From a virus, in the UHGV virus genome UHGV-1601451: 19,283 nt of DNA. One strand, given 5' to 3'. The position numbers were made by a program, and so were the translations under genes. Of this stretch, positions 400 to 19,283 are shown in pieces; position 1 is the first letter of the stretch; the number at the start of each line of letters is the position of its first letter. The notes beneath the pieces were generated by a model. It was given only the letters and a program-made list of their open reading frames with translations, did no database searches and was not told where the DNA came from.

Positions 400-486
400 T
401 GGTATGAGCCTGAAAATTTATTTTTAAAGAATTATTAAATACTGCCGATGTTAATAATTACACTAAAAAAAAGGAGCATGAAATTT

Positions 487-984: not shown

Positions 985-1326
985 TTAATAAAAAACAATT
1001 GGCTTTCACCATTTTTAATTACTTTTCCCAGCATGCCGAAAATGTCTCATTTATTTGAATGATTGTATCTTTAATAGATATATCGCGACTATTCCTAAAC
1101 TTATTTCTAGTTGTTAACAAAACTGTGTGCTATGAATGTCTGCTGTTGGCACATAGCAGTTCTAGAGACAGTGGCGTAAAGTCATGGAGAATCGGTGGAA
1201 GGAGGTGCAAACCCTCTCATACAAAAATGCGTAAAATCAGTAACGGCTGGAAATCATTCAATACTCGCACTATCAAAAGTTCACCAGCCAACCGCGACAC
1301 CTCCTGCATACGACATGTCTGCGGTT

Positions 1327-1881: not shown

Positions 1882-1935
1882 GGTAGATCTCCCTGACAAA
1901 AGCAGGAATGATGCCATTTGCTCGTTATTTCTGCA

Positions 1936-1961
1936 TTTTCATAAACGTTGGTTTGGGAGAA
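1936..1961. repeat. gix/hix-like 26-bp recombination crossover site (right site), between invertase start and invertible segment
   Basis: TTTTCATAAACG-TT-GGTTTGGGAGAA: two 12-bp half-sites around a 2-bp core. The inner half-site is a perfect inverted repeat of the inner half-site at 3797-3808. The core TT is the reverse complement of the AA core at 3809-3810. Confidence 0.8.
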
Positions 1962-2300
1962 GCGGCCAAATTGCCTGCGATTAGTGGCTCTTTATCATCA
2001 TCTGGCTGGATAAAAATCCCTGTTATAGAGGGGAAGTCTTTTATTATCCAATGGGGAAGAATCGGACCTTCTGATAGTAAAACTGGTGTTGCAACAGGAA
2101 GTTATCCTATTGCTTTTCCAAATTCTGCATTTATGGCATTTATTGCTGAAAAAACCGCAGTATCCACAGGCCCAATAGGTATTAATTCCTGGGGAGTATC
2201 CGAACTAACAAAAACAGAATTAAAGGCCATTTGTGCTGCAAGGACTATATCAACTTCAGCCGCAACTGAAACAGGTGATTTTCTGGTACTGGGATATTGA
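1950..2300 (+). CDS. alternative tail-fibre C-terminal variable part (Sv'-like), no own start; expressed only after inversion as a fusion to the constant N-terminal part
   Basis: The frame is open through the right crossover site. GGT TTG GGA GAA (GLGE) at 1950-1961 is in frame with the downstream ORF ...AAKLPAISGSL...IIQWGRIG...LVLGY, stop at 2298-2300. The same GLGE codons occur in the minus-strand fibre gene at the left site, so inversion gives an in-frame fusion. Confidence 0.75.
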   Translation, partial: GLGEAAKLPAISGSLSSSGWIKIPVIEGKSFIIQWGRIGPSDSKTGVATGSYPIAFPNSAFMAFIAEKTAVSTGPIGINSWGVSELTKTELKAICAARTISTSAATETGDFLVLGY

Positions 2301-2320
2301 GCTTCCATAAGGATTATAAA

Positions 2321-2770
2321 ATGTCGAGCATAATATACTACAGCTCTATAAATAATGCATTTTACCCTGAGCATTTGAAACAAGAATATATTAAATCTAA
2401 TTCTTTTCCAGCAGATGCAAAACCCGTTAAATATTCTGTTTTCGAAGAATTTGCACTTAAACCAGCACCAGAAGGAAAATACAGGTGCGTTGGTGAAGAT
2501 GGAATGCCATCATGGGCAGATATTCCACCACCAACACATGAGGAACAGATTGCCGCAGCCGAATTGAAAAAGCAGCAATTGATTAACCAGGTCAACGAAT
2601 ACATGAACAGTAAACAATGGCCCGGTAAAGCGGCTATTGGTCGTCTGAAAGGTGAGGAACTGGCGCAATATAATCTGTGGCTGGATTACCTGGACGCACT
2701 GGAAATGGTCGATACTTCCAGTGCTCCAGATATTGAATGGCCTACGCCTCCGGCAGTTCAGGCCAGATGA
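2321..2770 (+). CDS. tail fibre assembly protein (Tfa/U'-like), cognate to the alternative fibre tip
   Basis: MSSIIYYSSINNAFYPEH...DTSSAPDIEWPTPPA has a typical Tfa N-terminus and the conserved C-terminal D-T-S-x-A-P-D-x-x-W-P motif. AAGGA SD 7 nt upstream of the ATG at 2321. The track ORF begins at a TTG at 2297. Confidence 0.8.
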   Translation: MSSIIYYSSINNAFYPEHLKQEYIKSNSFPADAKPVKYSVFEEFALKPAPEGKYRCVGEDGMPSWADIPPPTHEEQIAAAELKKQQLINQVNEYMNSKQWPGKAAIGRLKGEELAQYNLWLDYLDALEMVDTSSAPDIEWPTPPAVQAR

Positions 2771-3344
2771 CATCTGGCGCGGTGCTGGTATCAGTTGCCG
2801 TCACCGCGTCAATGTAATCCAGCACAGCGTTAAGGCGGGTTGTTTCTGTCTGCGTCAGTTTACGTCCGGCCTGCAATTTCAGTTGAATCAGACTGATGGA
2901 AGCCATAGCAGCATCAATCAGATACTGGCGCTGTGCTTCTGCCGCTTCTACTGCGGCGCTATGCTGTGCCTCAGTATCCGTCACCCATTTCTCACCATCC
3001 CATTTATCGTATGGCGTTAATGGGGCGATAGTGGTTGTATTATCAGGGTAATCACCCGGAGCTGTGATTTCTTTTGATTCTCCTGTTTCGGTGCTAAAGA
3101 CGATTTCACCGCGATGGTCTGGCACATATTCCCATGAGTTAAAATCTGCAGAACGGCAGATTGCATAACCAGCTTTGTATGCGCCTGGAGCATCTAAACA
3201 GGAACATGCCGGAATGCCGACACCAACGGCAAGATATTCAGTTGATATGGAAATATATTCCCGTGTTTCACCATCATAATTATAGACAGTAATATTCCCC
3301 GCCTTCGTGGCAATAAACTCGCTATTTAATACAGCGCTATCCAT
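2742..3344 (-). CDS. tail fibre assembly protein (Tfa/U-like), cognate to the currently expressed fibre tip
   Basis: 200 aa ending ...LDYIDAVTATDTSTAPDVIWPELPEA, the conserved Tfa C-terminal motif. Start ATG overlaps the fibre stop (TAATG). Its 3' end overlaps the convergent Tfa' gene by 29 nt. Confidence 0.85.
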   Translation of the reverse strand: MDSAVLNSEFIATKAGNITVYNYDGETREYISISTEYLAVGVGIPACSCLDAPGAYKAGYAICRSADFNSWEYVPDHRGEIVFSTETGESKEITAPGDYPDNTTTIAPLTPYDKWDGEKWVTDTEAQHSAAVEAAEAQRQYLIDAAMASISLIQLKLQAGRKLTQTETTRLNAVLDYIDAVTATDTSTAPDVIWPELPEA

Positions 3345-4099
3345 TATGCAGCCCTCACAATGTAGTTAAATGCGATGTTGCGTGGACGGACACCGAAATA
3401 AGAAGTAACACCATTCATTGTCAAATTTCCAGAGCCAAAAGCGGTAAAACCAGAACCAGCATTAACTGCCGAATCCGCGTTTCTGACAAAGTTTTTGGGA
3501 GGTGAACCGGAGACACCAGCCGAAATATCATCAGCATTACCGCCATTGCCGTGGTGGTTAGTTATCTTTGTTTCCGCCTGCGCCGTCAACAAACCTCGTC
3601 CAGAGTCAACCCCGCGCCCGTCATCCCAGCCGCGAATAAACTCACCACGTAAATCAGGCAATTTATTTGTCGGATAAGCCTTTGCCAGTTCCGGGTATTC
3701 TTCAGCAGAAAAAGCCGCGCCGTTGCATTTCAGCCAGCCTGTTGGCGGAGTGGCGGAAGGCCATGGAACAGGGACACCAACGGGTAATGCAGAGCCTTCT
3801 CCCAAACCAAGGTTTTCGAGAGCCGTTTTCACCGTGCCATCCGATTTGATATCACCAAACGGATTCTTGCGGCTTAACAGCAGCGCACGAAGCGCGGTAA
3901 GCAGCTGGTCGTGCCGCGCCTTCTCCAGGCTGGCACCGGATGCCTCCACAACACTGCAAAGTTCCTCCTGCAACATGTCAAAGTAGTCATCATCCAGATC
4001 GGTGGCAGGTGTGCCGTTCTGGGGGTTACCACGGGTAAAACCGTTCTTACCCGCGCCGAACTTATCCTTCTGCGCGGTTTTCGTATCTATACGATGCAT
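3344..4099 (-). CDS. tail fibre protein: constant N-terminal part fused to variable tip carrying a phage tail-collar domain
   Basis: 251 aa. GGAG SD 6 nt upstream of the ATG at 4099. The tip downstream of the crossover site has PVGVPVPWP...[24 protein letters not shown]...[12 protein letters not shown], matching the tail-collar fibre domain signature. Crossover site lies inside the gene at 3797-3822. Confidence 0.9.
3797..3822. repeat. gix/hix-like 26-bp recombination crossover site (left site), inside the tail-fibre gene
   Basis: TTCTCCCAAACC-AA-GGTTTTCGAGAG. Near-palindromic 12-bp half-sites resembling the TTnnnnnAAACC half-site of Gin/Hin systems. 15 bp are identical to the inverted right site. 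Confidence 0.8.
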
Positions 4100-4102
4100 G
4101 GA

Positions 4103-4687
4103 TTACTCCGGATATTTAAAAATTACGTAGGTATGCGACGGGCAGAGTTTGTTAAGCACACACTCGACAACGGTGTCGCCCCAGATACGCAGTGCGGAAT
4201 CACAGGGATCGCCACATGTCATCCAGGTGGTGTTGGTGGCGGCTGGCATGTTGACCTGCCAGTAATACCGCCATTCCGGCGCATTCACCGCGTCAGTACA
4301 GGCCGATGAGCAGGTGAACGTGCTTTTGTCGTATCGCGTGATGGTGGCGTCTGGTCTGCCCAGGGCAGCAAGCTGTGCAAGGTAAAAATCCTCATTGATG
4401 CCGCCCGCCAGGTTAACCTTCGCATCCAGTCGTTGCTGACGCTGGCGAAGGGTCTGTGTCCCTGCGGGAATACATTCATCCGGCAGGCCGCACAGACGCT
4501 CCCAGCGATTTATCAGTTCGGTGGTGGTGCGCGGATCCAGCTCCCGCATCAGGGCATCCGCACGCTGATGAACGCGGGTTAATGACGGTGCCGCACCGGC
4601 AATCGCCGGATCGCTGGCTGACCACGCCGGACCGGGGGGCAACAGTGCCGACAACAGATGGATGTAATCATCGTTTGTCACGTCCAT
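4103..4687 (-). CDS. tail/baseplate protein, YmfQ / Mu gp48-like (DUF2313 family)
   Basis: 194 aa, immediately upstream of the tail fibre and downstream of the baseplate J-like gene, as in Mu and e14. Recognised by position and overall resemblance. Confidence 0.7.
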
Positions 4688-5736
4688 GAAATCGTCCCCA
4701 GTACCGCCAGTTCATTTTTTGCAATGGAGATATTGTCCGCCGGTGCAAGCAACTGATGGCTGTATTCCCCGTTCGCACCGGAAATCGCCTCACTGATACG
4801 CGACACCTTCAGTTCACCCTGCGGATAACCATCACGCAGCAGGAACGAACGCAACTCGGCGGTGATGGCAGCCCGTATTTCCGGTGTGTCCGGCGTCACG
4901 CGGATATGAAAATCCACTTTATGCGCCACCGGCCTGAATACATACAAATCAGAGCCTGCCACCGGGGCCAGTGGCTCAATGTGTTGTCTTGCCGCCGTTT
5001 CCGTTGATTCTTCCGGAATGGGATTAATCAGGTCACTGCTGGCAATCATCACACCGACAGTCCCCGTTCCCATCCAGTGGCGGTATGTCCATGCACGGGT
5101 AATGCCTGGCACTTCTTTAGCCCAGACAACATAGTCCCCGTCAGCCCCGCCCTGAGGCGTCCAGTAATACCGCTCAATGACGCGGGCGCGCCACGTTTCC
5201 AGCTCTTCAGTATCAAATCCACCTGTCAGAGTGTCTGCCACGCCGGAAGACGGCAGACCATTCACCGGCGTGACCAGGATTAATGACGTACCGTCGTCAG
5301 CATTACCGACCGCTCCTGCACTTGAGCAGGCGATCGGCACGCGCAGGACACCACCGGAGCTGGTTGCATCGGCAGTTGCCGTGTACTGAACCAGGTCATC
5401 GCGCTGAATAACACTCCCGGCGGTCACCTTCAGGCCATCGCTGACACCTTCCCAGCGCATATACCCGCTGGCAGCCGTGGCCCCCTTGCGCGGACACCGT
5501 TTCATCGCAGCATGTCGCGCCAGCCAGGACTCATCGCACAGGTCAGGCAGCATGTTCATTGCCAGATAATCGATGTAACCGTAAACCGTATGCAGCGCCG
5601 CCGCATACACCTTTGCCCGCACGTCTTCATCCATGCGCCGGAGCGTATCGCTGACGTCCAGCCTGGCGAATAAATCGTTACGGAGCATACTGATATTTTC
5701 TGCCAGCGTCGGGCGCTGAAATTCACTGTCCGCCAT
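4678..5736 (-). CDS. baseplate J-like protein (Mu gp47-like)
   Basis: 352 aa in the conserved position between the W-like and gp48-like genes. Small overlap with both neighbours, typical of a tightly packed tail operon. Confidence 0.8.
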
Positions 5737-6151
5737 GCGTTATCGCACTCCACAGATCATCAAAAGAAATCATTACCGGTCCGTCACGACGCCAGAGAGT
5801 GATACTGTTACCCAGTTCATTAATCCCGGTGCGGCGGATATCCAGATCAATACGGGACACCACACCGTCATCAATCATCCATTGCAGGCATTCGCGGATA
5901 TACCCCCTTACCGTCTGCACCAGCTGATTGGTCAGTTTGCCGCGCTGAAGCAGCCACAGCCGGGAGCCGTAACGGTCATTCTGTACCGCAGGCCAGGTAT
6001 CCCCCCACCATCCCATCGGGACGTCGGCATTGTCATCAGGCTCCGCCCGCCGCCAGGTGAACAGGGAAATCACCACGGCGCGGGTCAGCGGATCCAGCGG
6101 TGCGCTGGCGCAGGTGCGTTTACCGTTCACCGTCAGCCACAGTTCCATCAT
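5723..6151 (-). CDS. baseplate protein, Mu gp46 / GP46-family (W-like)
   Basis: 142 aa, positioned between the spike and J-like genes. Overlapping starts and stops with neighbours. Confidence 0.7.
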   Translation of the reverse strand: MMELWLTVNGKRTCASAPLDPLTRAVVISLFTWRRAEPDDNADVPMGWWGDTWPAVQNDRYGSRLWLLQRGKLTNQLVQTVRGYIRECLQWMIDDGVVSRIDLDIRRTGINELGNSITLWRRDGPVMISFDDLWSAITHGGQ

Positions 6152-6696
6152 GCCTCCATCGCTTTATCCGGTTTGTCGGTGTTACTGCCCTGACCGTTCT
6201 CTCTGTGACGATGGCCGTTATAGGCAAGCCGCATCGCTGACATGGTGGTGCCGCCGGAGTCGCACAGGTCTTTCACCTGTCCGGTCACTTCCAGGTCCAT
6301 TTCAAAACGTGCTCTGGGCGCATTGCGAAACGTGATCGTTTTACCTGCACCGTCCACCACGATCCCCTCCCGGGTCAGCGTCACAGACTGCCCCTGATCG
6401 TCATAGACAGCCACCTCCCCCGTCTGCAGCCCTTTCAGGCGGTAGCGCCGGTCCGACACCGTAACAACCACCGCATGAGAACGGTCGCCATCCGGAAACA
6501 ACACCACCGCTTCCGCACCGCTGTTTGCCCTTGCGGTAAAACCGTAGGGTTCAAGATGTTCAACCCCGGCTTTGGGTTCACCGGCAATCAGGGACACATC
6601 CACGGTCTGACATTTCGTGGCGGCACTGATGCTTTTCACCACTGCCCGCCCAATCAGGCCGAGAAGTTGTCGCTGCATGGCTTCAATCGTCCTCAT
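6148..6696 (-). CDS. baseplate assembly protein V-like (central spike), Mu gp45-like
   Basis: 182 aa, N-terminal OB-fold-like region followed by a Gly-rich C-terminus. Start overlaps the hub gene stop. Confidence 0.75.
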   Translation of the reverse strand: MRTIEAMQRQLLGLIGRAVVKSISAATKCQTVDVSLIAGEPKAGVEHLEPYGFTARANSGAEAVVLFPDGDRSHAVVVTVSDRRYRLKGLQTGEVAVYDDQGQSVTLTREGIVVDGAGKTITFRNAPRARFEMDLEVTGQVKDLCDSGGTTMSAMRLAYNGHRHRENGQGSNTDKPDKAMEA

Positions 6697-7775
6697 CAGA
6701 ACGGGTCCTCCTGTACTCTGGCTTTTTTCTTTTTCCGCGCGCCGGGGTCTTCAGGTTCAGGCAGATAAGCATCAGGCGGGCCGACACGGATTTCCGTCAG
6801 GGTGCCGTTCTGGTCCTGAGTAAACGTGACTTCCGAAACAAGCAGTTCGGTATTGTCAAAACCACAGACCGGATCAAAGACAATCACCCGCTGGTTGGGT
6901 TGCCACAGCGTACCGTTACCCTGTCGCCAGCCCTGCACCACATAGGTGGTTTCATCCGTCCGCGCCGCCCGTTGCCGGGCTTCAAAGTCAGCACGCGCAA
7001 TACAGCCTGCCCCCGTAGCCTGCCCTGTCTGCCTGATATACATCGGACGGTAACGGGCAATAAATGCGTCCTCTGTGCGGGCCCGCAGCGCGGTGGTGGT
7101 GGCCTCACCGAAATCATCGTCGTTTCCGGCACGCTGCCCCGCCACCTGGTAAACAGAAAACCGCTCCCGGATACTCTTCTCCGTATCGCAGGAAAGGATG
7201 TTTTCCCCAAGTACCAGCGCGGTATGTGCCCGCGTTGAGCCAATACCACCAATCACCAGCCTGCCGTGCGGGTCGTCGTAAGCCAGCGCCTGCTGCTGAC
7301 CGAGTATTTTGTTGATCACCTCGATCACCGTTTCACCGTGATCAGGCTGGACATCAGGAATAACACCCGACGGCGCACCGCTGTTCACCACCTCAATGCC
7401 GAAAGGCGCAGCAAGCGCCTGCGCAATCTGTACCAGCGATCGTCCGTTAAACTGTGTCGGTTCGGCTGCACAGTCAATCAGGTCAGCGGTCAGACTACGT
7501 CCGGCAATACCGGTGCTGACCGAACGGGCATCGTAACGAACGGGCGTCGCCTCCACCCAGCCGGTGATCACCAGCTCATCACCAATCAGCACCTCCACTT
7601 TTGAACCGTTTTTAATGCGCGACTGAAGCGTGGTAATACCCTCATCTCCCGGCCACTGGCGGGTGATCTCCACACTGAAATCCCGCGCCAGTCGTTCAAC
7701 ACCGGCACCGATGCGCACCGATGTCCAGCCATTCCACTCCCGGCCATTTACCCGTAGCGTGACGTTATCGTTCAT
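6696..7775 (-). CDS. baseplate hub protein, phage late control D-like (Mu gp44/P-like)
   Basis: 359 aa starting MNDNVTLRVNGREWNGWTSVRIG..., typical of the GPD family. ATGA overlap with the upstream DNA circulation gene. Confidence 0.85.
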   Translation of the reverse strand: MNDNVTLRVNGREWNGWTSVRIGAGVERLARDFSVEITRQWPGDEGITTLQSRIKNGSKVEVLIGDELVITGWVEATPVRYDARSVSTGIAGRSLTADLIDCAAEPTQFNGRSLVQIAQALAAPFGIEVVNSGAPSGVIPDVQPDHGETVIEVINKILGQQQALAYDDPHGRLVIGGIGSTRAHTALVLGENILSCDTEKSIRERFSVYQVAGQRAGNDDDFGEATTTALRARTEDAFIARYRPMYIRQTGQATGAGCIARADFEARQRAARTDETTYVVQGWRQGNGTLWQPNQRVIVFDPVCGFDNTELLVSEVTFTQDQNGTLTEIRVGPPDAYLPEPEDPGARKKKKARVQEDPF

Positions 7776-9100
7776 TGCACTGGCACCTTCAGAGGGATCA
7801 CCGGCACAAAGCCGGGATGCGTAATGGCATTACGCCGGATAATGTCCGCGTCACGCGCCGCGTTATCAAACCAGGTCGCCGCCAGCACCAGCGCGGGTAA
7901 AACCTCATCCGGCGTGCGCTGAATGATCCGTGCAGACTGTTCAAGGCGCGTGTTGATATCCGCATTCAGATCTGCTTTCACCCGGCGCAGCGCCAGAAAC
8001 AGCGCATCACTGGTTGTTCGGGACAACTCCTTATCAATTGCCGTATTCAGTGTGTCGCGAATGTCAGTCAGTTCTTCCCACGTCGGCAGGTCAACCGTGC
8101 TTTTCACCGCCGGTGCATTGTTCAGTGCCGGATGCGTGACGGAGGGCCAGCCAGTGCTCTGCGCGGGTGTTGTTGCCTGCCCCACTGCGGCATTCTGCAT
8201 CACCGCGGAAGTTGTTGGCGCAGGCAATCGGGTGACGGCATACGCCGCTTCGCTGATTGCGGTCGTACGAAGGGTGCTGGCAACCACGTTACGCTGCTGC
8301 GTCGCCGTGGCGGTGGTTTTACTGTCCGTTTTCCAGACGCCGCGCGGTTGCAGATCGCTGCCGAGGCTGACACCGGAAAGCGTTTTGATCATGGTGACCA
8401 GGTCGCTGGCGTTACCATAAAGGCGTTTCCCGGTACGCCACATTTTCTGCACCTGCTCAACGAAATTTTTGCCTGACGATGGCGGCGGCAGAAGTACCGA
8501 GATATCCCCCTGCAACAGCCTGGCGGCATCCGATACGGCAGAATCCACCACTTTCATCGCATCAGAAACATACCCAAGCATTGTGCTGGCATTACCGACG
8601 ACGTCGTTCTGCACAAAATCTGCCACGCCATCGATACTGAAACCACTGAAGCTGTCACTGATGCAGTCATCCAGTGCAGAACAGGATGACATCAGCGTCT
8701 GCGCCGTCGCCGCACCTGAAGTGGGGTAAGAGAGTTCTCCCGCTTCGACAAACTTCAGGTCAAAGCGGACAATACGCCCTTCACTCTTCGATGTGCTGAC
8801 CCGAACTTCCCCGTCAACACAGACTTTCAGCTCACCGTAAGTCGGATGGACAAGTGTGCCGGGACCGGGTTTATTCAGCGCGTCAATCAGGCGATCGCGC
8901 TGGTCAAAGCAGTCATCTCCCACCACATAAGCTGTGATGGACGGGCGGAAAGTGATTTTCCCCAGGTCTTCGGTATAGGGTTTGTCGCGGTTCGGGTATT
9001 CGTGCGTTTCCACACGACGACCGGTTCCCGCACTTTCTTCTTCAACCTTAAACGGCACACCGCGAAATGACGCGTCCTGAAGTCTGTCTTTCCACGTCAT
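7772..9100 (-). CDS. DNA circulation protein (Mu N-like)
   Basis: Contains MTWKDRLQDASFRGVPF... near the N-terminus. Start placed at the ATG at 9100 (GGAG SD 5 nt upstream); the track ORF begins at 9142 with no SD, and its first 14 codons overlap a terminator-like hairpin. Confidence 0.8.
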   Translation of the reverse strand: MTWKDRLQDASFRGVPFKVEEESAGTGRRVETHEYPNRDKPYTEDLGKITFRPSITAYVVGDDCFDQRDRLIDALNKPGPGTLVHPTYGELKVCVDGEVRVSTSKSEGRIVRFDLKFVEAGELSYPTSGAATAQTLMSSCSALDDCISDSFSGFSIDGVADFVQNDVVGNASTMLGYVSDAMKVVDSAVSDAARLLQGDISVLLPPPSSGKNFVEQVQKMWRTGKRLYGNASDLVTMIKTLSGVSLGSDLQPRGVWKTDSKTTATATQQRNVVASTLRTTAISEAAYAVTRLPAPTTSAVMQNAAVGQATTPAQSTGWPSVTHPALNNAPAVKSTVDLPTWEELTDIRDTLNTAIDKELSRTTSDALFLALRRVKADLNADINTRLEQSARIIQRTPDEVLPALVLAATWFDNAARDADIIRRNAITHPGFVPVIPLKVPVQ

Positions 9101-9115
9101 ATAAACTCCGTACAT

Positions 9116-9137
9116 AAAAAATCCCACCGGAGTGGGA
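9116..9137 (-). terminator. short hairpin followed by T6 (intrinsic-terminator-like) between tape measure stop and DNA circulation start
   Basis: Minus strand reads TCCCAC-TCCG-GTGGGA followed by TTTTTT. Stem is only 6 bp, so at most a weak or partial terminator. Confidence 0.3.
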
Positions 9138-9160
9138 CTCATTAACAGATTAATTTTTCA

Positions 9161-10996
9161 TTACCTGCCAAAGCGCGTATAGCCAACATCATGGCTGACA
9201 TCAAAACCGCTGGATCGCGTTTCCATAACCCGCATACCCGGAGGCGAATTCACAAAAGAGACCTTGATCTCACCATCAACTTTTGGCGCAGAAGCTTTGT
9301 TAATCATGAAGGGATTCGGGCCTGTGGCATCGGAGGCGTTGTTTGACTGAGCCGGATCTACCGCCTGATAAGGTGTGTATCCCCGTGCCGGTATTCCCGT
9401 CCCATAAGCATCATAAGCACCCGCGCCCCACTGCGCAGAGTTAATGACATCGACCGTGTCACCGGAACTGTCGGTAAACCACTCAATAATTGGCTTCAGC
9501 TTGTCCCACATATCCTGAAACCACTTAACAACCGGTCCCCAGTTATTGATTACCATCCCCAGCGGCGACCAGGCAAAAACCTTCTTCAGAAGTTCCCAGC
9601 CAGCCTCAAAATAAGGACCAATGGTTTCCCAGAGCTTCTTGAAATAAGGTCCGACAACATCCCAGTTAGTGATAATTAATCCCGCAGCCAGGGCTATCGC
9701 CGTCGCAATCATTCCAATCGGCGTCATCGACATGATCCTGCTGACAATACTGATGGCACCGCCAACGCCCATCAATCCCAGTTTCAGAATCGCAAAACCG
9801 GCAGCAAGCCCGACGACGCCGCGAATAACCCGGGGATTTTCATCCGCAAACTTCGTGAATTTTTCCCCTAACTCCCCCAGCCATTGCGTGATATTTTTGG
9901 CGTCACCAGAAAATGCGCCGCCAATAGCCGCAAGGCCGTTAGTTGCGGTCCCCGTCATTGCCTCCCACAGGTTGGACAGCGTACCAAGCTGGGCCTGAAC
10001 ACGTTTATTCAGGCTGGCCTGTTTATTCATCTTCTGCTGGATCTGATCGTAACCATCTTTTCCTTTATCGATCAGAGCATTGACCACCTGAAGGGTTTCA
10101 GCATCATCACCAAATATTGCCTTAAGTACACCGGTTCGCTTAACGTCGGTCAGTTTTCGCAGCTTTGCCAGTTGCCTGAACATGTTATCAAGACCGCCAA
10201 AACTCCCTTTGCCGTCAGTAAAATCGAGCTGCACTCCGAGTTTCTGGCGGGCCATGACTTTATTGACGTCCCTGATTTTCTTAACGCTTAATCCGGACTG
10301 GATAACTTTTCGCAGGGCATTACCTGCCGACTCCCCGTTCATCCCCATCTGATCCATCATGACGCTGATAGGGGCAAGGCTCTGTGCAGCCTGAAGACCG
10401 TCCTTATTCACCATCTTCAGAACAGAACTGGTTTTAGTGAAGAAGGACAACATGTTGGTATCGTCAACGCCCAGATAAAACGCCTTCTGGATAGTGTCGA
10501 ACAGCCCCATCATGTCTTCTGACGCCGTTCCGGTAGCATCCTGCATCTTTGCAGCAAACTCAGCAGCCGCTTCTGGTGTTTTTTTCAGTTGTACCGCAAG
10601 ATAAGCTGTCGCTTTACCCACACCACCCAGAATGTTTTCTGCCGGGATCCCCTGACGCACCAGCATCTGCATCATGTTCTGGAAATCAGCCGTTGTACCG
10701 GGTAGCTGGTTACCCAGGCCAATAGCCAGTTTATTGATGTCCTGAAAGCGCTTTCCAACCTCGCCGTTCGCATCCATCATGGCGACTTTCAGCCCGGTGG
10801 CGGCGTTTTCCTGATCGGCATAAGATTTCAGGGAAAGCGTCAGACCCGCTGCCAGTCCGCCACCAAGCGCCAGCCCACCCTGTGACGCTTCTTCCGCCTG
10901 GCGTTTAAATCCCCGGATTTTCTTTTGCATTTTCGACAGCGCCGGAGAAAGCCTGTCGACACCGGTGATCAACGCCTTAAGCTCAAATTCAGCCAT
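9161..10996 (-). CDS. tail tape measure protein
   Basis: 611 aa, helical and Ala/Gly/Leu-rich with a Trp-rich C-terminal region. Located directly after the frameshifted chaperone pair and before the baseplate genes. Confidence 0.85.
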   Translation of the reverse strand: MAEFELKALITGVDRLSPALSKMQKKIRGFKRQAEEASQGGLALGGGLAAGLTLSLKSYADQENAATGLKVAMMDANGEVGKRFQDINKLAIGLGNQLPGTTADFQNMMQMLVRQGIPAENILGGVGKATAYLAVQLKKTPEAAAEFAAKMQDATGTASEDMMGLFDTIQKAFYLGVDDTNMLSFFTKTSSVLKMVNKDGLQAAQSLAPISVMMDQMGMNGESAGNALRKVIQSGLSVKKIRDVNKVMARQKLGVQLDFTDGKGSFGGLDNMFRQLAKLRKLTDVKRTGVLKAIFGDDAETLQVVNALIDKGKDGYDQIQQKMNKQASLNKRVQAQLGTLSNLWEAMTGTATNGLAAIGGAFSGDAKNITQWLGELGEKFTKFADENPRVIRGVVGLAAGFAILKLGLMGVGGAISIVSRIMSMTPIGMIATAIALAAGLIITNWDVVGPYFKKLWETIGPYFEAGWELLKKVFAWSPLGMVINNWGPVVKWFQDMWDKLKPIIEWFTDSSGDTVDVINSAQWGAGAYDAYGTGIPARGYTPYQAVDPAQSNNASDATGPNPFMINKASAPKVDGEIKVSFVNSPPGMRVMETRSSGFDVSHDVGYTRFGR

Positions 10997-11407
10997 GTGT
11001 GCGTTTCTCCTGCTCTATCCTGTTTGCCTGACTGACCAGCAAGGGAATTTCACTGATCGGCATATTCAGCAATTCGAAGGGATTAATGCGCCAGTAACTG
11101 GCGCAGTCAAAGAAGCGATCAGTGAGGTATTCAGCCGTCAGGCCTGGAGGAAAAAACCAGCCACAAGCCACGCCGCTGCATTCAGGTCTGCCGGAGACAT
11201 CTGGTCGACAGAGCTTTGCGGCACTTTCGCCAGCCGCACAATGTATTTCGACACCACATGCGCCAGAAGTCTGACGGACTCATCCTGATTCATCTGGTAA
11301 GGATACCCCAGCTCGCGGACATCCTTCCCGGTGGGTTCATCAAACTCCAGTACGGAGAGTGTCTCGCCATGAGCGATAATCGGTTTCTTTAACTCAAGCT
11401 CTTTCAT
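10989..11407 (-). CDS. tail assembly chaperone, long form produced by -1 programmed ribosomal frameshift
   Basis: Slippery heptamer T-TTT-TTC on the minus strand (plus coords 11150-11156). The -1 frame continues as FFPPGLTAEYLTDRFFDCASYW...EKRTHG and stops at 10989, overlapping the tape measure start. Same architecture as the lambda G/GT and P2 E/E' chaperone pairs. Confidence 0.7.
11138..11407 (-). CDS. tail assembly chaperone, short (in-frame) form
   Basis: 89 aa ending ...AAWLVAGFFLQA, directly upstream of the tape measure. Contains the slippery heptamer near its 3' end. Confidence 0.8.
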   Translation of the reverse strand: MKELELKKPIIAHGETLSVLEFDEPTGKDVRELGYPYQMNQDESVRLLAHVVSKYIVRLAKVPQSSVDQMSPADLNAAAWLVAGFFLQA

Positions 11408-11763
11408 TACTGGTAATCCCCTTCTTCACCGTGGAACTCAAGATCAACCGTGCCTTCTTCGGCATTATGGTTCGCTTCGCCGTGCACCCAGGCTGACGAC
11501 AATACATAGACCTGACCGTTCGCCAGCTCAGCAGTGATGGTCATCTCATCAGACGAGGTGATTTTGCTCACAGGAAAATTCTTCGGCACCTTGAAGGTCC
11601 CTTTAACATAGGGCGCACGGTGAGTTTCCTTGCGGTCCACTGAACCGTCCAGGCCGATGATGTCATCATTGACCGTCCTGTTCATGGGCACCTCAATGCC
11701 GCCGGTCAGCGATAGCTGCTGACCGTCAATTTTGAAATAACAGGTTCCCCCGATACGGGCCAT
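11407..11763 (-). CDS. tail tube protein (Mu-type)
   Basis: 118 aa, immediately downstream of the sheath gene with overlapping stop and start. Confidence 0.8.
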   Translation of the reverse strand: MARIGGTCYFKIDGQQLSLTGGIEVPMNRTVNDDIIGLDGSVDRKETHRAPYVKGTFKVPKNFPVSKITSSDEMTITAELANGQVYVLSSAWVHGEANHNAEEGTVDLEFHGEEGDYQ

Positions 11764-13259
11764 TATGCAGACTCCTCTGAATACTGAAGACGGAACTGGT
11801 TAACCACGGCAAAGACACGCAACTGGTTAACATAGTCAGGCGGGAACAGCGTGTTCAGGCGGTTCGGATCGCTGGCATCACGCTCCACAACCAGGTACTG
11901 CTTGAACAGTTCGTAGTTTTCCACGATCCCCGCACGCTCGAGCTGACGGTAGGTTGCCAGCAGTTCCCCTTTGATCACTGCCGGGGTGACAATCGCCTGA
12001 CCGGGACCAAAGCGGGTACCGTCACTGGCAAGCTTGTGACGCCCGTACTTACTGGTAATGACGGATTTCAGTTTGCGCAGTACATACGCGCTGGTATGCA
12101 ACGTCTCGCTGTCGAGGTAGCTGTTATCCGCAACCCCGTAAGCGTTTTTCCTGTACGTGGTGACATCACGCTGAATGCGCAGTACCCCGCTTTCGACATA
12201 CGCCGTTGCCACGCCATGAGACAGCAGGGTCTGTTGTTCGGTCATCGTGAACCGTTTCCCCTTCGGCGCAGGCAGCATACCCACCAGCTCACCGGTCTGC
12301 GTGGGACGTGCCGGATCGTTGCGGATAAACACCGCTGCGCGGGCGGTACGGCTTGCCGCCAGCTCATCGGCAGGCGTCTGGGTGTCTTTTTCGTACCCCG
12401 CCAGGGTAATGTGCTGCTGGTTAAACTGGTCACCTGCGGTCACCAGTTCTGACAGCGTGCCGATCTTTGCCGTATACACATGGCCATACAGCTGACGCGC
12501 ATAGCTCCAGCGACCGCTGGTATCGTTCATCTCGGTCACCAGCGTGTTAAGGGAGGCCGTGTCGTTGAACGGCAGACCGATATAATCAAACGGCTCATCC
12601 GCCATTGCAGCCACCGCGCCGGTGAGAACCGGAGCGCCCGTTCCGGCGGTCCCCGCCGCCACGGCAATCTGTACGCCCGCAGGCAGCACTTCTCCCCCAC
12701 CGAAGCCGTAGTAATTGAGGCTGACAGGAATTTCATTCCCGCAAAGCCCCTTATGACGCGCGGTCAGTGTGACCACGCCAGCCGAAGATGAGGCCGTAAA
12801 CGGCAGGGCCGGAACGGCATTGATGGCATCCTGGATACTGCTGGCAATCGTCGCGACGTTATCGCCGTTGGTCACCGGTGCCTGCACGCGGGTACGTCCC
12901 ACATAAACATTCACCGTGCCGGTTTCGGTTGCCGCGCCGGTCACCGTCAGCGTAACTGTTGCCGCCGCGCCCGTGGATTCAGGAACGGCAATCACATACA
13001 GTTCACCAAACGGGTCGGTCTGGCGATAAGCCTCGACCATACGCGCCAGCTGACTTCCCGCACCACAAATCTGGCGTGCATAGTCTGCCGATGGCATCAG
13101 CACCAGACTGTTGGCAACAATCTCTGCACCGTTATTGGCATGACCAATCAGCAGCGATGCCCCGCTGTCCTGTGCAGTATTCGCCGCCTGGTTATCCATT
13201 TCCGCATAAAACAGCGGAACCAGCGTATTCGACGGAATGGTGTTAAAGCTTATCGTCAT
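11763..13259 (-). CDS. contractile tail sheath protein (Mu-type)
   Basis: 498 aa starting MTISFNTIPSNTLVPLFYAEMDN..., characteristic of Mu-family sheath proteins. Followed by the tube gene. Confidence 0.9.
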   Translation of the reverse strand: MTISFNTIPSNTLVPLFYAEMDNQAANTAQDSGASLLIGHANNGAEIVANSLVLMPSADYARQICGAGSQLARMVEAYRQTDPFGELYVIAVPESTGAAATVTLTVTGAATETGTVNVYVGRTRVQAPVTNGDNVATIASSIQDAINAVPALPFTASSSAGVVTLTARHKGLCGNEIPVSLNYYGFGGGEVLPAGVQIAVAAGTAGTGAPVLTGAVAAMADEPFDYIGLPFNDTASLNTLVTEMNDTSGRWSYARQLYGHVYTAKIGTLSELVTAGDQFNQQHITLAGYEKDTQTPADELAASRTARAAVFIRNDPARPTQTGELVGMLPAPKGKRFTMTEQQTLLSHGVATAYVESGVLRIQRDVTTYRKNAYGVADNSYLDSETLHTSAYVLRKLKSVITSKYGRHKLASDGTRFGPGQAIVTPAVIKGELLATYRQLERAGIVENYELFKQYLVVERDASDPNRLNTLFPPDYVNQLRVFAVVNQFRLQYSEESA

Positions 13260-13413
13260 CGGTATTCACCTTTTTATTCACGCGCCGGATATCACCCGCT
13301 GCTTCACGGCGCAGCCAGTAGTTGTTCTCATCAACATTTCGCCCTTCGGCGGGCAAAAGGTCGCCGCGGGCAGGGTCAGGAACTGACCGCCCTTTAACAG
13401 GTTTGACAAACAT
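13243..13413 (-). CDS. small hypothetical protein (56 aa), not in the supplied ORF track
   Basis: ATG at 13413 preceded by GAGGA (5-nt spacer) overlapping the upstream gene stop. Translation MFVKPVKGRSVPDPARGDLLPAEGRNVDENNYWLRREAAGDIRRVNKKVNTDDDKL, stop at 13243-13245. It fills the otherwise non-coding 160-bp gap and overlaps the sheath start by 17 nt. Confidence 0.5.
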   Translation of the reverse strand: MFVKPVKGRSVPDPARGDLLPAEGRNVDENNYWLRREAAGDIRRVNKKVNTDDDKL

Positions 13414-13421
13414 GAGGATCC

Positions 13422-13982
13422 TCAGGAAGGAAGGGTTATTTCGGTGTGATGTTCGATATCGCCGTCAGGCCCGTTACCGGGCTCGAGATAATCAACATCA
13501 ATCGCCAGCGTTTGCAGTTCATCCAGACTGTTCAGATCATCCTGCTGGCGGGTATCGTCTTCAGTCAGCTCGCTGATGACCGAAAAATCGAACTGATAAA
13601 TCAGCTCATGACGATTCAGATCCAGCAGCGTGCCGCCGTCATAGGTAATCGGGTTACCGCACGCCTCCGGGTTCCAGCCCAGCAGAGCCTTAAAGAGCAT
13701 CTGCCGGACATCGTCAACCACATCATACGAGGCAAACTGACCGCGCTCATCACGCCCGTTACTCAGTATGACAACCACGGAGAAACCCTCTTTCAGCTCC
13801 TGCCAGTAGTCGGTCTGGCTTTTGTTTTCTCCCGGAGAATCATCACCCGGTACAACATATGCCGCCGGGAGTTTCAGCTTTCCGACCTCCGGCAGATTTT
13901 TGAACTGGGCCGCGCCTGCAACCCGGTTTTCAAAATACGGACAGCGGGCACGCAGTGCAGCAATAACAGGCGTCAGTTTCAT
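13422..13982 (-). CDS. neck / tail-completion protein (Mu gp37-like family, tentative)
   Basis: 186 aa, acidic, between the head-tail connector genes and the sheath. 4-nt overlap with the upstream gene. Family assignment by position only. Confidence 0.5.
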   Translation of the reverse strand: MKLTPVIAALRARCPYFENRVAGAAQFKNLPEVGKLKLPAAYVVPGDDSPGENKSQTDYWQELKEGFSVVVILSNGRDERGQFASYDVVDDVRQMLFKALLGWNPEACGNPITYDGGTLLDLNRHELIYQFDFSVISELTEDDTRQQDDLNSLDELQTLAIDVDYLEPGNGPDGDIEHHTEITLPS

Positions 13983-14485
13983 CTGTGTCGTCGCTCCGGC
14001 TTCAGTGATTTACGCAATTCCCGCGCCAGAAAATAGCGTGTCCAGCTGCGGTTCTTTTCAAGCGTTTCCACCATAAAGTTATTACGTGGAGCCAGTCGCC
14101 AGCCGCTGCCACCGGATGCACCACGATGATGGCTGCGACGACGCTTTGCTCCTCCCCGGACACCAAAAAACAGAAACGCCGGATAGAAGTCACCAGAGAT
14201 CATCCGGTTCCCCTTCCCGTTGCGCTGGTTAGGGGCAATGCGTGTCATAAAACCGGCTCGCTTTTTACTGGCTCCCGGCACCATGTAACCAATCGAACGA
14301 GCCAGGCGTCCGGTCTGATAACCGGGGTTTTCACCCGGTGCCGACCGCGCACGGCGCATCACCAGCCGACGGGCATCACGCATATGACGCTGCCCAATCG
14401 TGACAAACGCCCGCCGGACACGGGCGCGGTTAAAGCGCATCTCGGCGGGCTGCTGAACATCAACGTGAAAAAAGGAAGTCGCCAT
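13979..14485 (-). CDS. virion morphogenesis / tail-completion protein (tentative)
   Basis: 168 aa, strongly basic (Arg-rich). Packed with overlaps between its neighbours in the connector cluster. Confidence 0.5.
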   Translation of the reverse strand: MATSFFHVDVQQPAEMRFNRARVRRAFVTIGQRHMRDARRLVMRRARSAPGENPGYQTGRLARSIGYMVPGASKKRAGFMTRIAPNQRNGKGNRMISGDFYPAFLFFGVRGGAKRRRSHHRGASGGSGWRLAPRNNFMVETLEKNRSWTRYFLARELRKSLKPERRHR

Positions 14486-14870
14486 TGTTGCCTCCGTGAC
14501 TCTGCGTAAATTCGCCCAGCTCCGTACATTCCAGCAGCAGAAAGCGCCGCGCCCCGTTCAGATCGCGCTGACGTTTTACCCGGTACACACTATCACCGCA
14601 GACCACCTCATAATCAGCGGTGATCCCCCGGCGGTAACGAATGGTGATGTAATGGGTGATGGCGTCCCCGGTCTGCGCGGTTTCCTGCCTGGTGGTGGCA
14701 CTGGTCTGGATAACCTTCGCCCATGTCCGGAACGTAACCGGGTATTGAGGCTCCACGCCAAAGTTATCCGCGGGCATATCCACCCGCAGGCGGATCAGGA
14801 CGCGTTTATTCAGTTCACCGGGGTCCGGCAGAATGTAGGTTGCGCTGGTCTGCGCCTGACGAATTTTCAT
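14460..14870 (-). CDS. head-tail adaptor / head closure protein (tentative)
   Basis: 136 aa, in the connector cluster downstream of the gp6-like gene. ATGA-type overlap with the upstream gene. Confidence 0.5.
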   Translation of the reverse strand: MKIRQAQTSATYILPDPGELNKRVLIRLRVDMPADNFGVEPQYPVTFRTWAKVIQTSATTRQETAQTGDAITHYITIRYRRGITADYEVVCGDSVYRVKRQRDLNGARRFLLLECTELGEFTQSHGGNNGDFLFSR

Positions 14871-15190
14871 TGCGGAAAGTACCTGTACGGGCCGACAAGC
14901 CAGCCAAAACTCTGCGGCATGTCGAGTTTCTCCACTTCCGTAACCGACGAGCGGTTTTCGTAAAAATGGCTGATAAGCATCAGCATCCCCAGACGAATAT
15001 CATCCGGCAGGTGCAGCCCGTCCGGATCGCTGTCCGGAATGGTTTCATCCGGTGCATAGAGCTTCCGGTTCAGATACGTTTCCGTCCGCTTTTGTGCCGC
15101 ACATGCCAGCAGTTGCAGATGGCGGTCATCAGTATCGAAATCCTCATCCAGCCGGAGTTGGGCTTTAATCTCTTCCATTGTCAGAAGCAT
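14867..15190 (-). CDS. head-tail connector protein, gp6-like
   Basis: 107 aa, MLLTMEEIKAQLRLDEDFDTDD..., typical of the small gp6-like connector family that follows capsid genes. Confidence 0.6.
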   Translation of the reverse strand: MLLTMEEIKAQLRLDEDFDTDDRHLQLLACAAQKRTETYLNRKLYAPDETIPDSDPDGLHLPDDIRLGMLMLISHFYENRSSVTEVEKLDMPQSFGWLVGPYRYFPQ

Positions 15191-15192
15191 AC

Positions 15193-15393
15193 TCAGCCCT
15201 CTTTACTGGTCGTGGCTTTTTTCTCTTTTGCCGCTTTACTGCTTTTTGCACTGATTCCGCGCTCTGCTAACCCGGCCTGAAGTGCAATCTCCTGCACCCG
15301 GGCAGGAAGCGCCCCGTCGTCATACTCACCGGCCCGAATGACCTCAACACGCATACCGTCCGGTGACCATTTCAGATCTTGTTTCAGGATCAT
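15193..15393 (-). CDS. small hypothetical protein (66 aa), Lys/Ala-rich C-terminus
   Basis: Tightly packed between the capsid gene and the connector gene. Function unknown. Confidence 0.45.
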   Translation of the reverse strand: MILKQDLKWSPDGMRVEVIRAGEYDDGALPARVQEIALQAGLAERGISAKSSKAAKEKKATTSKEG

Positions 15394-15415
15394 GATTCTT
15401 CACCCGTCAGAACAG

Positions 15416-15435
15416 GGGGCGCGGTTCCGCGCCCC
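15416..15435 (-). terminator. GC-rich stem-loop just downstream of the major capsid gene (no U-tract)
   Basis: GGGGCGC ... GCGCCCC perfect inverted repeat, 8-11 nt after the capsid stop. Not followed by a T-run on the transcribed strand, so more likely an attenuator or stability element than a full terminator. Confidence 0.35.
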
Positions 15436-15442
15436 TGAGTGA

Positions 15443-16648
15443 TTACGCCGCTGCAATCTTCAGCAGTTTGATGGCCTGCGAATCGACCAGCATCCCGCCG
15501 GTGCGCTTGGTGGTATAAAAACCGACAAACGGTTTATTGGTGTACGGGTCACGCAGAATGCGGGTGCCGATACGGTCAACGATGGTGTAACCCCGTTTGA
15601 AGTTACCAAATGCAATGGCTTTCGCATCAGCGGCGATATCCGGCATCTGTTCGTTTTCAGCGATACCGTAACCCGCCAGAGAGGACGGCTGCCCCAGTTC
15701 CAGCCCCGGACGCCACAGATAGTTACCCTCGGTGTCTTTCAGCAGACGGATGGCAAACAGGCTGTTGTTGTTCATCATGAACTTCGCGCCAGTGCGGTGT
15801 GCCTTACGCAGCGTGTAAATCAGTTTGATAATGGCGTCTGCGGTCACCGCGGTCGCTTCGCCGGATACAATATGCTGAAGTTTGCCGAACGCCCGGACCT
15901 TGTCGGTTTCATCAGTGGATTCATACGCCAGGAACCCTTTCGGCTTCTTGGTGCCATCGCCTGAGGTAAAGGCAATTTCTTCCTGTTCGGCAAATTCGGT
16001 TGCCAGCTCGCTGTTGATCCAGGCCTCCACGTTGAAGAAGGCATCGTCCAGCATTTTCTGGGTAGCCTGCGGGTTGCCGTAGATTTCCCCCATGAGAGGT
16101 TCAATCAGCTCCAGTCTGGAGGTGGCAGTCTGGGCTCGCGTATCCGTTTCCCCCACCCATCCGGAAGCCGTACCGCCCAGATTCACCAGTTTTTTGTAGT
16201 CGGAACCGCCAACGGTGATCACCGTGGCTTCCTGACGCATCACCACTTCATCTTTCAGCAGGTTAAGAATGTTGCGATCCAGTTCTTCCGGCACGGCGTA
16301 GCCACCGTCTTCATCGGTACCCACCTGCAATGCCTTACGCTCCAGATCGCGCAGACCGTCTTCACGGCCTTTACGCAGGAAGCCCACAAACGCCTCTTTA
16401 TGCTCGGTGGCCAGTTTATTTTGCGCTCCACCTGCCGGACGTTTCAGCTCAAGCAGCTCTTTTTCAAGGTCGCTTTTGAGATTTTCCAGCTCGCTGAGTT
16501 TCCCGTTCAGGGTTTCCACCTGCCCGGCAAGCTTGCCTTTTTCCTGCTCAATCGCATCCACGCGCTTGTCGTTCTTTGCTTTGAAGTCGTCAAACTTCTG
16601 CTGCAGCTCCTGCGCGACCTGTTCCACATCTTTAATATCAACCGCCAT
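15443..16648 (-). CDS. major capsid protein, HK97 family, with N-terminal coiled-coil scaffolding (delta) domain
   Basis: 401 aa. The N-terminal ~100 aa is a charged heptad-rich coiled coil (DIKDVEQVAQELQQKFDDFKAKNDKRVDAIEQEKGKL...). The C-terminal part resembles the HK97 fold core. AGGAG SD 7 nt upstream. Directly downstream of the prohead protease. Confidence 0.9.
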   Translation of the reverse strand: MAVDIKDVEQVAQELQQKFDDFKAKNDKRVDAIEQEKGKLAGQVETLNGKLSELENLKSDLEKELLELKRPAGGAQNKLATEHKEAFVGFLRKGREDGLRDLERKALQVGTDEDGGYAVPEELDRNILNLLKDEVVMRQEATVITVGGSDYKKLVNLGGTASGWVGETDTRAQTATSRLELIEPLMGEIYGNPQATQKMLDDAFFNVEAWINSELATEFAEQEEIAFTSGDGTKKPKGFLAYESTDETDKVRAFGKLQHIVSGEATAVTADAIIKLIYTLRKAHRTGAKFMMNNNSLFAIRLLKDTEGNYLWRPGLELGQPSSLAGYGIAENEQMPDIAADAKAIAFGNFKRGYTIVDRIGTRILRDPYTNKPFVGFYTTKRTGGMLVDSQAIKLLKIAAA

Positions 16649-16662
16649 CGTATTTCTCCTGA

Positions 16663-17313
16663 TTAGAAGTTCAGATTTTTCAGTGCATTCAGTGCAGAGC
16701 CCACATCCTCAGCGTCGCGCAGGGACAGTGCGCCATAGCCCCCGGCCATGAATGCTTTGGCCTGGGTACGGGAGAGTCCGACATCACGCAGGACTCTTTC
16801 GATTTTTTTCTGTTCGGGGATTTCCCCGCGGGCCAGTGCGTTCTTGACGTCGCTGATCCGCGCCTCGTCGTTAGACGGGAACGTCACCAGGCTGACTTCC
16901 CAGAGGTCGATTTCTTTCAGCAGAAAGGCTTCTTTGCTCCGGTCGTATTCCCAGTCTTTCAGGACGTACCCAATAGAAAGGCCGGTTAACGAACCGGCCT
17001 TCATGTGTGCATGTGCGCGTTTTGCGAGGGGATCATCATCAATAAGCAACCGTCCCCTGACGTAAAGCCCGACATCGTCTTCCTTCATTTCGGTGTAAAC
17101 ACCGATGGGTTCATCCATGCGGTGCTGCCAGAGCAGCGCAGGTAACGCTTTTCTGTCACTCCACGCCCGCAGGGAAGCAGCAAATGCCCCGGACATCACC
17201 ACATCATCGTGGCTGTCCTTTACACCAAAGACGGAGCCATACCCTTCAAACTCACCGGAGTCACTGACAGATTTCAGACTCAGCGGTACATCAAGACGTT
17301 GTTTCGTCTGCAT
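16663..17313 (-). CDS. prohead protease, HK97 family
   Basis: Protease-like sequence between portal and capsid genes. Start at the ATG at 17313 (AAGGA SD 8 nt upstream) preferred over the track start at 17349, which lacks an SD. Confidence 0.85.
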   Translation of the reverse strand: MQTKQRLDVPLSLKSVSDSGEFEGYGSVFGVKDSHDDVVMSGAFAASLRAWSDRKALPALLWQHRMDEPIGVYTEMKEDDVGLYVRGRLLIDDDPLAKRAHAHMKAGSLTGLSIGYVLKDWEYDRSKEAFLLKEIDLWEVSLVTFPSNDEARISDVKNALARGEIPEQKKIERVLRDVGLSRTQAKAFMAGGYGALSLRDAEDVGSALNALKNLNF

Positions 17314-18532
17314 TGGCGTTATCCTTCTGCTTACCGGCTTTACTGCCATCGGAGGGTTTCGTGGTCATGTTCATCGGTGTGAGATAGACATCACCACCGG
17401 GACGTGGATTCATATCTTCCAGGTCGCGGCAGTCATTGGGAGAGTAAATTCCCCAGTTGATCCCGGTGGCGTAGGCTTCAAAACGGGACTTCATATCCCC
17501 GCGCAGTAACGCCCCGGCGTTAAATTTGGCGTAATAAACGCCCTGCTTACTTTTTCGTACCAGTCCGGTGTTGATCCGCTGTTCGATGCGGGTCAGATAC
17601 GGCACCAGTGAATAGTTGATAAATCCCAGCCCCAGCTCTTCGATATTGTTGAAGGTGGCGCGATCGGTGTTCTGCACCATGTGCAACGGCACCCGGAACA
17701 GACGACAGATTTCTTCAAGCTGAAACTTGCGGGTTTCCAGGAACTGGCTGTCCTCGGCGTTCAGCGCCATCGACTTCCAGTCCAGCCCCATCTCAAGGAT
17801 CATCGGGCGGTGAGCATTGCCAAGCCCGGTGTGACGCTCCTCAAAATCTTTCTTCAGGCGCTCATAAGCCTGATCTGACAGCGTCTGCTCTGTACGCAAC
17901 ACACCCGACGTCACCGCGCCATTGCTGAACAGTCTGGCCCCGTGCTCTTCGGTCGCTGCCGCCAGCGATATTGCCTCGCGGGCATAGGCGATGGGATTCA
18001 GCCCCACCAGTCCGTCCAGCGTCAGCGTGCGCACATGCCAGATATCCTCTTGGCTCAGTACATCCGTGGAGCCATCCGGGAATGTGACCTGATAGACCGG
18101 CTCCCAGCTACTGTTAAGCTTCGGTACCACACAGCCGGGATCGACGGGCAGCAGTTCAGCCACTTCGCCAAATGCTTTCACTTTGTAGGCGTAAAAGTTT
18201 CCCCGCAGGCACAGACAGGTGACCACCAGCTCCCAGAACTCCTGCGGCGTCATATAGCCATTGGGATGCGTGGAGATCAGCTTATGCAGACGTTCGCCAG
18301 TGGCTCTCTGCTTCAGGCTGCCGTTCAGGTGATACAGGTTGCAGGGCAACATCCCGACCGACTCCGCCAGCACCCTGACACAGGAAAAAACCGCCGTCAG
18401 TCGCATGGCCCGCTGGCTGCTGATCTGCTTTCCGGTATAGGTGTCGTAGGACAACCCGATAGCATCCGCCAGCTCTGCTGGCGTGGTCACCGGTGCGTCA
18501 CTTTTTCGTTGAAATAATCCCGAAAAGAACAC
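17291..18532 (-). CDS. portal protein, HK97 family
   Basis: 413 aa with N-terminal FFSGLF...AMRLTAVFSCVRVLAESVGMLP, typical of HK97-type portals. GTG start at 18532 with GGAGG 6 nt upstream, overlapping the stop of the small membrane ORF. Confidence 0.9.
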   Translation of the reverse strand: MFFSGLFQRKSDAPVTTPAELADAIGLSYDTYTGKQISSQRAMRLTAVFSCVRVLAESVGMLPCNLYHLNGSLKQRATGERLHKLISTHPNGYMTPQEFWELVVTCLCLRGNFYAYKVKAFGEVAELLPVDPGCVVPKLNSSWEPVYQVTFPDGSTDVLSQEDIWHVRTLTLDGLVGLNPIAYAREAISLAAATEEHGARLFSNGAVTSGVLRTEQTLSDQAYERLKKDFEERHTGLGNAHRPMILEMGLDWKSMALNAEDSQFLETRKFQLEEICRLFRVPLHMVQNTDRATFNNIEELGLGFINYSLVPYLTRIEQRINTGLVRKSKQGVYYAKFNAGALLRGDMKSRFEAYATGINWGIYSPNDCRDLEDMNPRPGGDVYLTPMNMTTKPSDGSKAGKQKDNANADETTS

Positions 18533-18714
18533 TATTTACCTCCGCCGACAGACGACTGTGTACGGTCGAGATATCGCGCCACCAGCCACGACCAGAACAG
18601 GCACAACGCCCCGGCAACAACAAACCCCGCCGGGGGATAAATCAGCCAGGCACCATACGCCAGCAAAAGCGCCCCCAGCACGCCCACCAGAGGCGCGAGA
18701 ATCAGCATGATCAT
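18532..18714 (-). CDS. small integral membrane protein (60 aa, two predicted TM helices)
   Basis: [26 protein letters not shown] / [23 protein letters not shown]: two hydrophobic helices. GAGG SD 5 nt upstream of the ATG. Exactly fills the gap between the terminase stop (18726) and the portal start. Confidence 0.6.
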
Positions 18715-18725
18715 AATTACCTCAG

Positions 18726-19247
18726 TTAAAGCGAGCGGATCCCATAGGACTCAATGTGGTCAGACAGCGTGTCTTCTTTCTCGTACAGCATGGCTCTGCC
18801 AACCGCCATAATCAGCGCAACTGCACCATCGATTTTGTTTTCCGCCTGCTCTTTGACGGGCTTCACCACATCATCGTTACCCGGAATGGTTTTGCCGACC
18901 ACGTTGCCTATACACCAGGTCATGATGGGATTGCCATCATGATGAAAGCGCCCCGATTCAATTGCCGCTTCCAGCTCTTTCATCGGGTCGGACATGTTGG
19001 TGTAGTTCTGAATGATAGTGACGGGATTCAGGTCTTCATCAGCAAGGTCATGTGACAACCCGGTCGCCCCGAAGGGGTCGATGGGTGACTCACTGACCGG
19101 GCTGATTTTGTTCGCCGCTTTGGCCTCCTCGAGGATATAGCGATAATCCACCTCCGCACCATCGGTAACGGTCAGAACGCCCATTTCCACCCATTTCTGA
19201 AAGCGTTCGGCTGTCCGTCGATCTTCATTTTTCTCGACGCTGTACAC
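18726..19247 (-). CDS. terminase large subunit, C-terminal (nuclease) part only; N-terminal part lost at the contig end
   Basis: ...[52 protein letters not shown]..., the terminase nuclease-domain region with acidic residues. The first five codons of the track ORF (MYKRQ, 19248-19262) are encoded by adapter sequence and are not real. Confidence 0.85.
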
Positions 19248-19283
19248 CTGTCTCTTATACACATCTCCGAGCCCACGAGACAG
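19248..19283. other. Illumina Nextera / Tn5 mosaic-end adapter sequence (library artefact)
   Basis: CTGTCTCTTATACACATCTCCGAGCCCACGAGAC matches the Nextera read-2 adapter over 34 bp, followed by AG. It is at the very end of the window. Confidence 0.9.

Follow-up and report, generated by a model that had tools for sequence, protein, structure and literature searches.

In a Tn5 tagmentation product, an intact adapter is joined to target DNA by its 3′ mosaic end, and the transposed mosaic end is always complete. The 19-bp mosaic end was engineered from the natural Tn5/IS50 ends; it is a synthetic hybrid, unlike the natural IS50 outside end (CTGACTCTTATACACAAGT) and inside end (CTGTCTCTTGATCAGATCT). 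Adapter contamination is an error class screened for by UniVec/VecScreen and NCBI FCS-adaptor, and a literature search on adapter contamination at contig ends found nothing specific. For NexteraXT libraries, exactly CTGTCTCTTATACACATCTCCGAGCCCACGAGAC is given as the read 1 trim sequence, and the library molecule is described in the order CTGTCTCTTATACACATCTCCGAGCCCACGAGAC, then index, then PCR primer (Turner 2014, PMC3906532). This 34-mer consists of the 19-bp Tn5 mosaic end and 15 Illumina-specific bases, and a literature string search found the exact string in 111 papers. The window, i.e., the whole 19,283-base stretch of viral DNA analysed here, carries the same 34-mer at its right end.

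Identity of the Terminal Sequence

Bases 19248–19283 of the window read CTGTCTCTTATACACATCTCCGAGCCCACGAGACAG. The original prediction placed a Nextera adapter here, and a pattern search of the whole window bore this out: the Nextera 34-mer matches 19248–19281 on the + strand with 0 mismatches (34/34). It is the single match in the window, even when up to 3 mismatches are allowed. The adapter was also expected to open with the Tn5 mosaic end, and the 19-bp mosaic end CTGTCTCTTATACACATCT is indeed exact at 19248–19266 (+ strand); a search across the window that tolerated up to 3 mismatches turned up no further copy of it. This end is complete, abuts the genomic DNA directly and is followed, without a gap, by the Illumina read-2 specific bases CCGAGCCCACGAGAC at 19267–19281 (+ strand), the identity of the sequence being that given in PMC3906532. 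The 19248 adapter was the only one found in the window when TruSeq, the other Nextera arm, P5 and P7 were also sought. Read on the − strand, the contig end runs CT, GTCTCGTGGGCTCGGAGATGTGTATAAGAGACAG and then genomic GTGTACAGCGTCGAG... Tagmentation yields products of this layout, in which target DNA follows directly on the 3′ mosaic end of an intact adapter.

After the 34-mer, only AG remains before the contig end (19282–19283, + strand). The 34-mer precedes an 8-base index in IMG/VR, and the AG is most likely the first two bases of an i7 index, though two bases cannot identify one. The IMG/VR adapter copies with a tail starting in AG (n = 3) read AGGCAG(AA), which is presumably the Nextera N703 index, and the AG of the window is compatible with it.

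Position at the Contig End

When the partial protein was looked up by exact match, the hit was a single public contig, ena:ERZ654312:NODE_99_length_19283_cov_5.132671, of which the window is the entirety; the DNA returned for NODE_99 was identical to window 8726–19283. Because the window is the whole of contig NODE_99, the adapter is located at a genuine end of the contig and points outward. The terminase gene is called at the extreme end of NODE_99 and runs off it. No adapter was present at the left contig end. The contig bears a SPAdes-style name and has a low coverage of 5.1. No paper mentioning the accession ERZ654312 was found in the literature, and the exact genome–adapter junction (CTCGACGCTGTACACCTGTCTCTTATACACATCT) was absent from both IMG/VR and the JGI metagenome contigs.

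Homologous Genomes at the Break

The complete chromosome of E. coli UPEC_U013 (NZ_CP058596.1) carries the same prophage, with 99.9–100% identity up to base 19248. By segment, the identity is 100% for window 1–1962, 99.9% for window 1943–3815, which is inverted, and 99.95% for window 3796–19252. A three-way alignment shows no difference between the window, UPEC_U013 and phage vB_EcoM-720R4 up to the end of ...GACGCTGTACACC at window 19248. Past this base UPEC_U013 and vB_EcoM-720R4 both read GTGTCATACGGTACCCAGAAACG..., and the window reads TGTCTCTTATACAC..., which is unrelated. The sequence of both genomes beyond 19248 is GTGTCATACGGTACCC...; in UPEC_U013, the DNA after the break, GTGTCATACGG..., leads into a 577-aa terminase large subunit, and vB_EcoM-720R4 also continues with GTGTCATACGG...

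The reach of the BLAST alignment to 19252 results from a one-base gap, beyond which TGTC matches by coincidence. When the terminal 1.5 kb of the window was compared with 1,599 E. coli genomes, all 20 of the 20 matches listed stopped at query 1453, which corresponds to window 19252. The full 36-mer was not found in any of the 5,426 complete E. coli genomes searched.

Base 19248 (C) is the first base of the adapter and also the genomic base at this position. A transposed mosaic end is never partial, which puts the molecular junction at 19247|19248; from the sequence, its exact place is ambiguous by one base, the C fitting both adapter and genome. Trimming at 19247, as proposed originally, therefore gives a correct sequence, but the choice is not unique, and trimming at 19248 is equally correct.

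Terminase Large Subunit Gene

The genuine 3′ part of the terminase large subunit gene occupies 18726–19247 (− strand) and encodes residues 405–577 of 577 aa, together with the stop codon. Residues 13–185 of the window's partial protein are identical to residues 405–577 of the UPEC_U013 terminase (WP_000088153.1) at 173/173 positions, and residues 1–12 align to nothing in that protein. The full-length UPEC_U013 terminase contains an ATPase domain (PF03354, residues 86–256) and a nuclease domain (PF20441, residues 268–558). The window fragment matches PF20441 (TerL_nuclease) at profile positions 139–284 of 286 only (E = 2.3e-21), and the profile search found no PF03354 ATPase domain in it. This genuine stretch covers the nuclease domain's C-terminal half; with the contig ending where it does, the N-terminal half of that domain and the whole ATPase domain are lost. 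The portion of the terminase outside the contig comprises 404 N-terminal codons, or about 70% of the gene. The near-identical UPEC_U013 prophage continues into the full 577-aa gene, which supports the earlier view that the terminase is cut by the contig end and not by biology.

The terminase reading frame meets no stop in all 36 terminal bases, so it runs off the contig end and 12 of its codons are adapter-derived. These spurious codons (19248–19283, − strand) include a false GTG start at 19262–19260, as seen from the translation, the list of open reading frames and the public gene call. The earlier statement that the first five codons come from the adapter is right for the mechanical ORF 18726..19262 (−), whose GTG start falls inside the adapter and whose product begins V Y K R Q; it fails for the open frame and the partial gene call, which hold 12 adapter codons. 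The public gene call on NODE_99 is a 185-aa partial terminase at 18726–19283 (− strand), and its first 12 residues are translated adapter; the artefact has thus entered a public protein collection. These 12 residues should be kept out of alignments and of start-site inference. The right trim point for the contig is 19247 or 19248, and the terminase should be marked as a 5′-partial gene.

The Same Adapter in Other Collections

The adapter string also turned up in 43 GenBank records of phages whose hosts are unrelated, among them Streptococcus, Bacillus, Listeria, Pseudomonas, Staphylococcus and Acinetobacter. In these records, most copies lie no more than about 100 bases from the record end, and several records have internal copies. 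In IMG/VR, at least 120 contigs carry the adapter; 124 of 125 copies are located within 80 bases of the locus end and face outward, and a median of 14 bases follows the 34-mer (n = 125 copies read). The tails begin with a few 8-mers, e.g., CGTACTAG, GTAGAGGA, GGACTCCT, TAGGCATG and TAAGGCGA, which we take to be Nextera i7 indexes. Among the 22 copies with long enough tails, the index is followed by ATCTCGTATGCCGTCTTCTGCTTG in 19; two others differ from ATCTCGTATGCCGTCTTCTGCTTG by one base, and the last is an internal copy (L014). A contig-end sequence that occurs in unrelated organisms, precedes index and P7 there and is lacking in the host species' finished genomes is a library artefact.

Most of the IMG/VR adapter contigs (loci L004–L123) come from one dataset, 3300045988. 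The internal copy L014 lies at 3701–3734 of the 190,684-bp contig IMGVR_UViG_3300010234_000504 and suggests a chimeric join there. RefSeq NC_054919.1 (L125; Escherichia phage vB_EcoM_G4507, deposited as a 'complete genome') contains an internal full adapter read-through within record positions 76326–77159, in the order 34-mer, CGAGGCTG, ATCTCGTATGCCGTCTTCTGCTTG and long A runs. The insert is placed between two adjacent CDSs, both annotated 'baseplate hub subunit and tail lysozyme', and this gene appears to be split by it. Dozens of phage records in RefSeq and GenBank carry the adapter, and it should be masked before the phage collections of GenBank, RefSeq and IMG/VR are scanned for conserved terminal motifs or terminal repeats.

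Origin of the Terminal Bases

We put the probability that the terminal 36 bases are untrimmed Illumina Nextera (Tn5 tagmentation) adapter, an ordinary assembly artefact, at about 97%. They are not a biological feature and are a matter of data hygiene only. Four points were observed directly: what the sequence is, that it stands at a true end of the contig, that homologous genomes part from the window exactly there, and that the complete genomes searched lack it. The history of read-through and contig-tip extension that we infer would be as follows. In a library fragment with an insert shorter than the read length, the read would leave the prophage DNA, enter the complete mosaic end and continue through the read-2 adapter to the first index bases. 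Adapters would have been left in the reads before assembly, and at a coverage as low as 5.1 the assembler may have extended the contig end with the adapter-bearing read, the path stopping there.

A real disruption of the terminase in the source strain, be it prophage decay or a laboratory insertion of a Tn5 mosaic end, is very improbable as the cause of the break. A terminase truly truncated or rearranged in a decayed prophage, with the adapter merely present on the last read, would agree with a contig that holds no source genome beyond 19248, with phage records of which some cover only 64% of the 17800–19283 query, and with the fact that prophage remnants of this family, e.g., e14, are common in E. 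coli. It is hardly to be expected in a contig that is 99.9–100% identical to an intact prophage across all 19.2 kb, that has a complete head, tail and baseplate module and whose break matches the start of a synthetic adapter to the base. The low coverage, moreover, accounts for the contig end without biology, and we regard true truncation as highly unlikely.

Fainter still is the prospect that a Tn5-derived mosaic-end transposon entered the terminase gene in vivo, e.g., in a laboratory mutant. The hyperactive Tn5 transposome does insert the 19-bp mosaic end, but the 15 bases past it are Illumina read-2 sequence and not IS50 or a marker cassette. A search for a transposon body (IS50 or cassette) after the 19-bp end found none: the 15 Illumina bases are followed by AG and then by the contig end. 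The synthetic nature of the mosaic end, which sets it apart from both IS50 ends, also speaks against such an insertion, as do the termination of the contig with this sequence and the lack of the 36-mer in the complete E. coli genomes searched. A natural Tn5 end was rejected on sequence, the 34-mer being an exact Nextera match.

An adapter internal to a longer chimeric contig, at which the window merely stops, has precedents in one of the 125 IMG/VR copies (L014) and in RefSeq NC_054919.1; here it was rejected, since the source contig and the window both have 19,283 bases and the gene runs off the end. Chance resemblance of phage DNA to the adapter was dismissed, given ~1.3e-16 exact 34-mer matches expected by chance when both strands of 19,283 bases are counted, no match (0/200) in dinucleotide-preserving shuffles of the window and an unrelated sequence in homologous genomes at this place.

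The Surrounding Prophage

The window is an E. coli prophage of the SfII/SfIV/ST64B/phiP27-like myovirus type. The − strand encodes the terminase large subunit, a small ymfR-like ORF, portal, prohead protease, major capsid protein and connectors, and further the sheath, tube, tape measure and baseplate.

A 1.87-kb segment (window 1943–3815) is in the opposite orientation to the otherwise 99.9–100% identical UPEC_U013 prophage and is flanked by the 20-nt inverted repeats AAACGTTGGTTTGGGAGAAG / CTTCTCCCAAACCAAGGTTT. It is adjoined by a gene for a Pin-type serine invertase (1327–1917, − strand; PF00239 and HTH_7). The segment is a Pin/Gin-like tail-fibre switch caught in its other state; owing to the inversion, the tail-fibre gene is joined to an alternative C-terminal part and a different assembly protein.

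At the left side, window 1–122 (− strand) encodes a 34-aa remnant resembling a tyrosine recombinase C-terminus (...LLGHKKLESTFRYLGIEVDDALEISESI). The contig breaks off here 7 nt short of the remnant's stop, and no Pfam match was found for the remnant at its length. In UPEC_U013 (L003, 1–4100), the remnant abuts a PHP-domain gene and a gene for a TrlF-family AAA-like ATPase, followed by an integrase Arm-domain pseudogene, an arrangement that may represent a cargo insertion at the prophage end. GenBank OR844959.1, a 1,764-bp record labelled 'Enterococcus phage Efm 3-10', is 92.5% identical to the E. coli prophage terminase region and is probably a mis-assigned or contaminating sequence.

Comparison with Known Systems

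The terminases of SfII/SfIV/ST64B/phiP27-like prophages of E. coli, Shigella and Salmonella are 95–99% identical at the DNA level to the genuine part found in the window, which differs from them in having no N-terminal 404 residues, including PF03354. Most of the 19-bp end is common to the natural Tn5/IS50 ends and the adapter; the window differs from the natural ends in carrying the synthetic mosaic end, followed by Illumina sequence instead of IS50. Compared with Illumina Nextera/Nextera XT read-through (the reverse complement of GTCTCGTGGGCTCGGAGATGTGTATAAGAGACAG), the terminal sequence is 34/34 identical, follows genomic DNA in the read-1 orientation and is alike in its outward contig-end position and in trailing bases compatible with an index. 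No difference from such read-through was found, the index and P7 part being cut off after two bases. The contig end likewise resembles adapter contamination of public assemblies, in which the same 34-mer stands at the ends of the IMG/VR contigs and in the GenBank phage records described above. It differs from ordinary contamination of this kind in that the adapter has here also supplied a false start codon and placed 12 false residues in a public protein collection.
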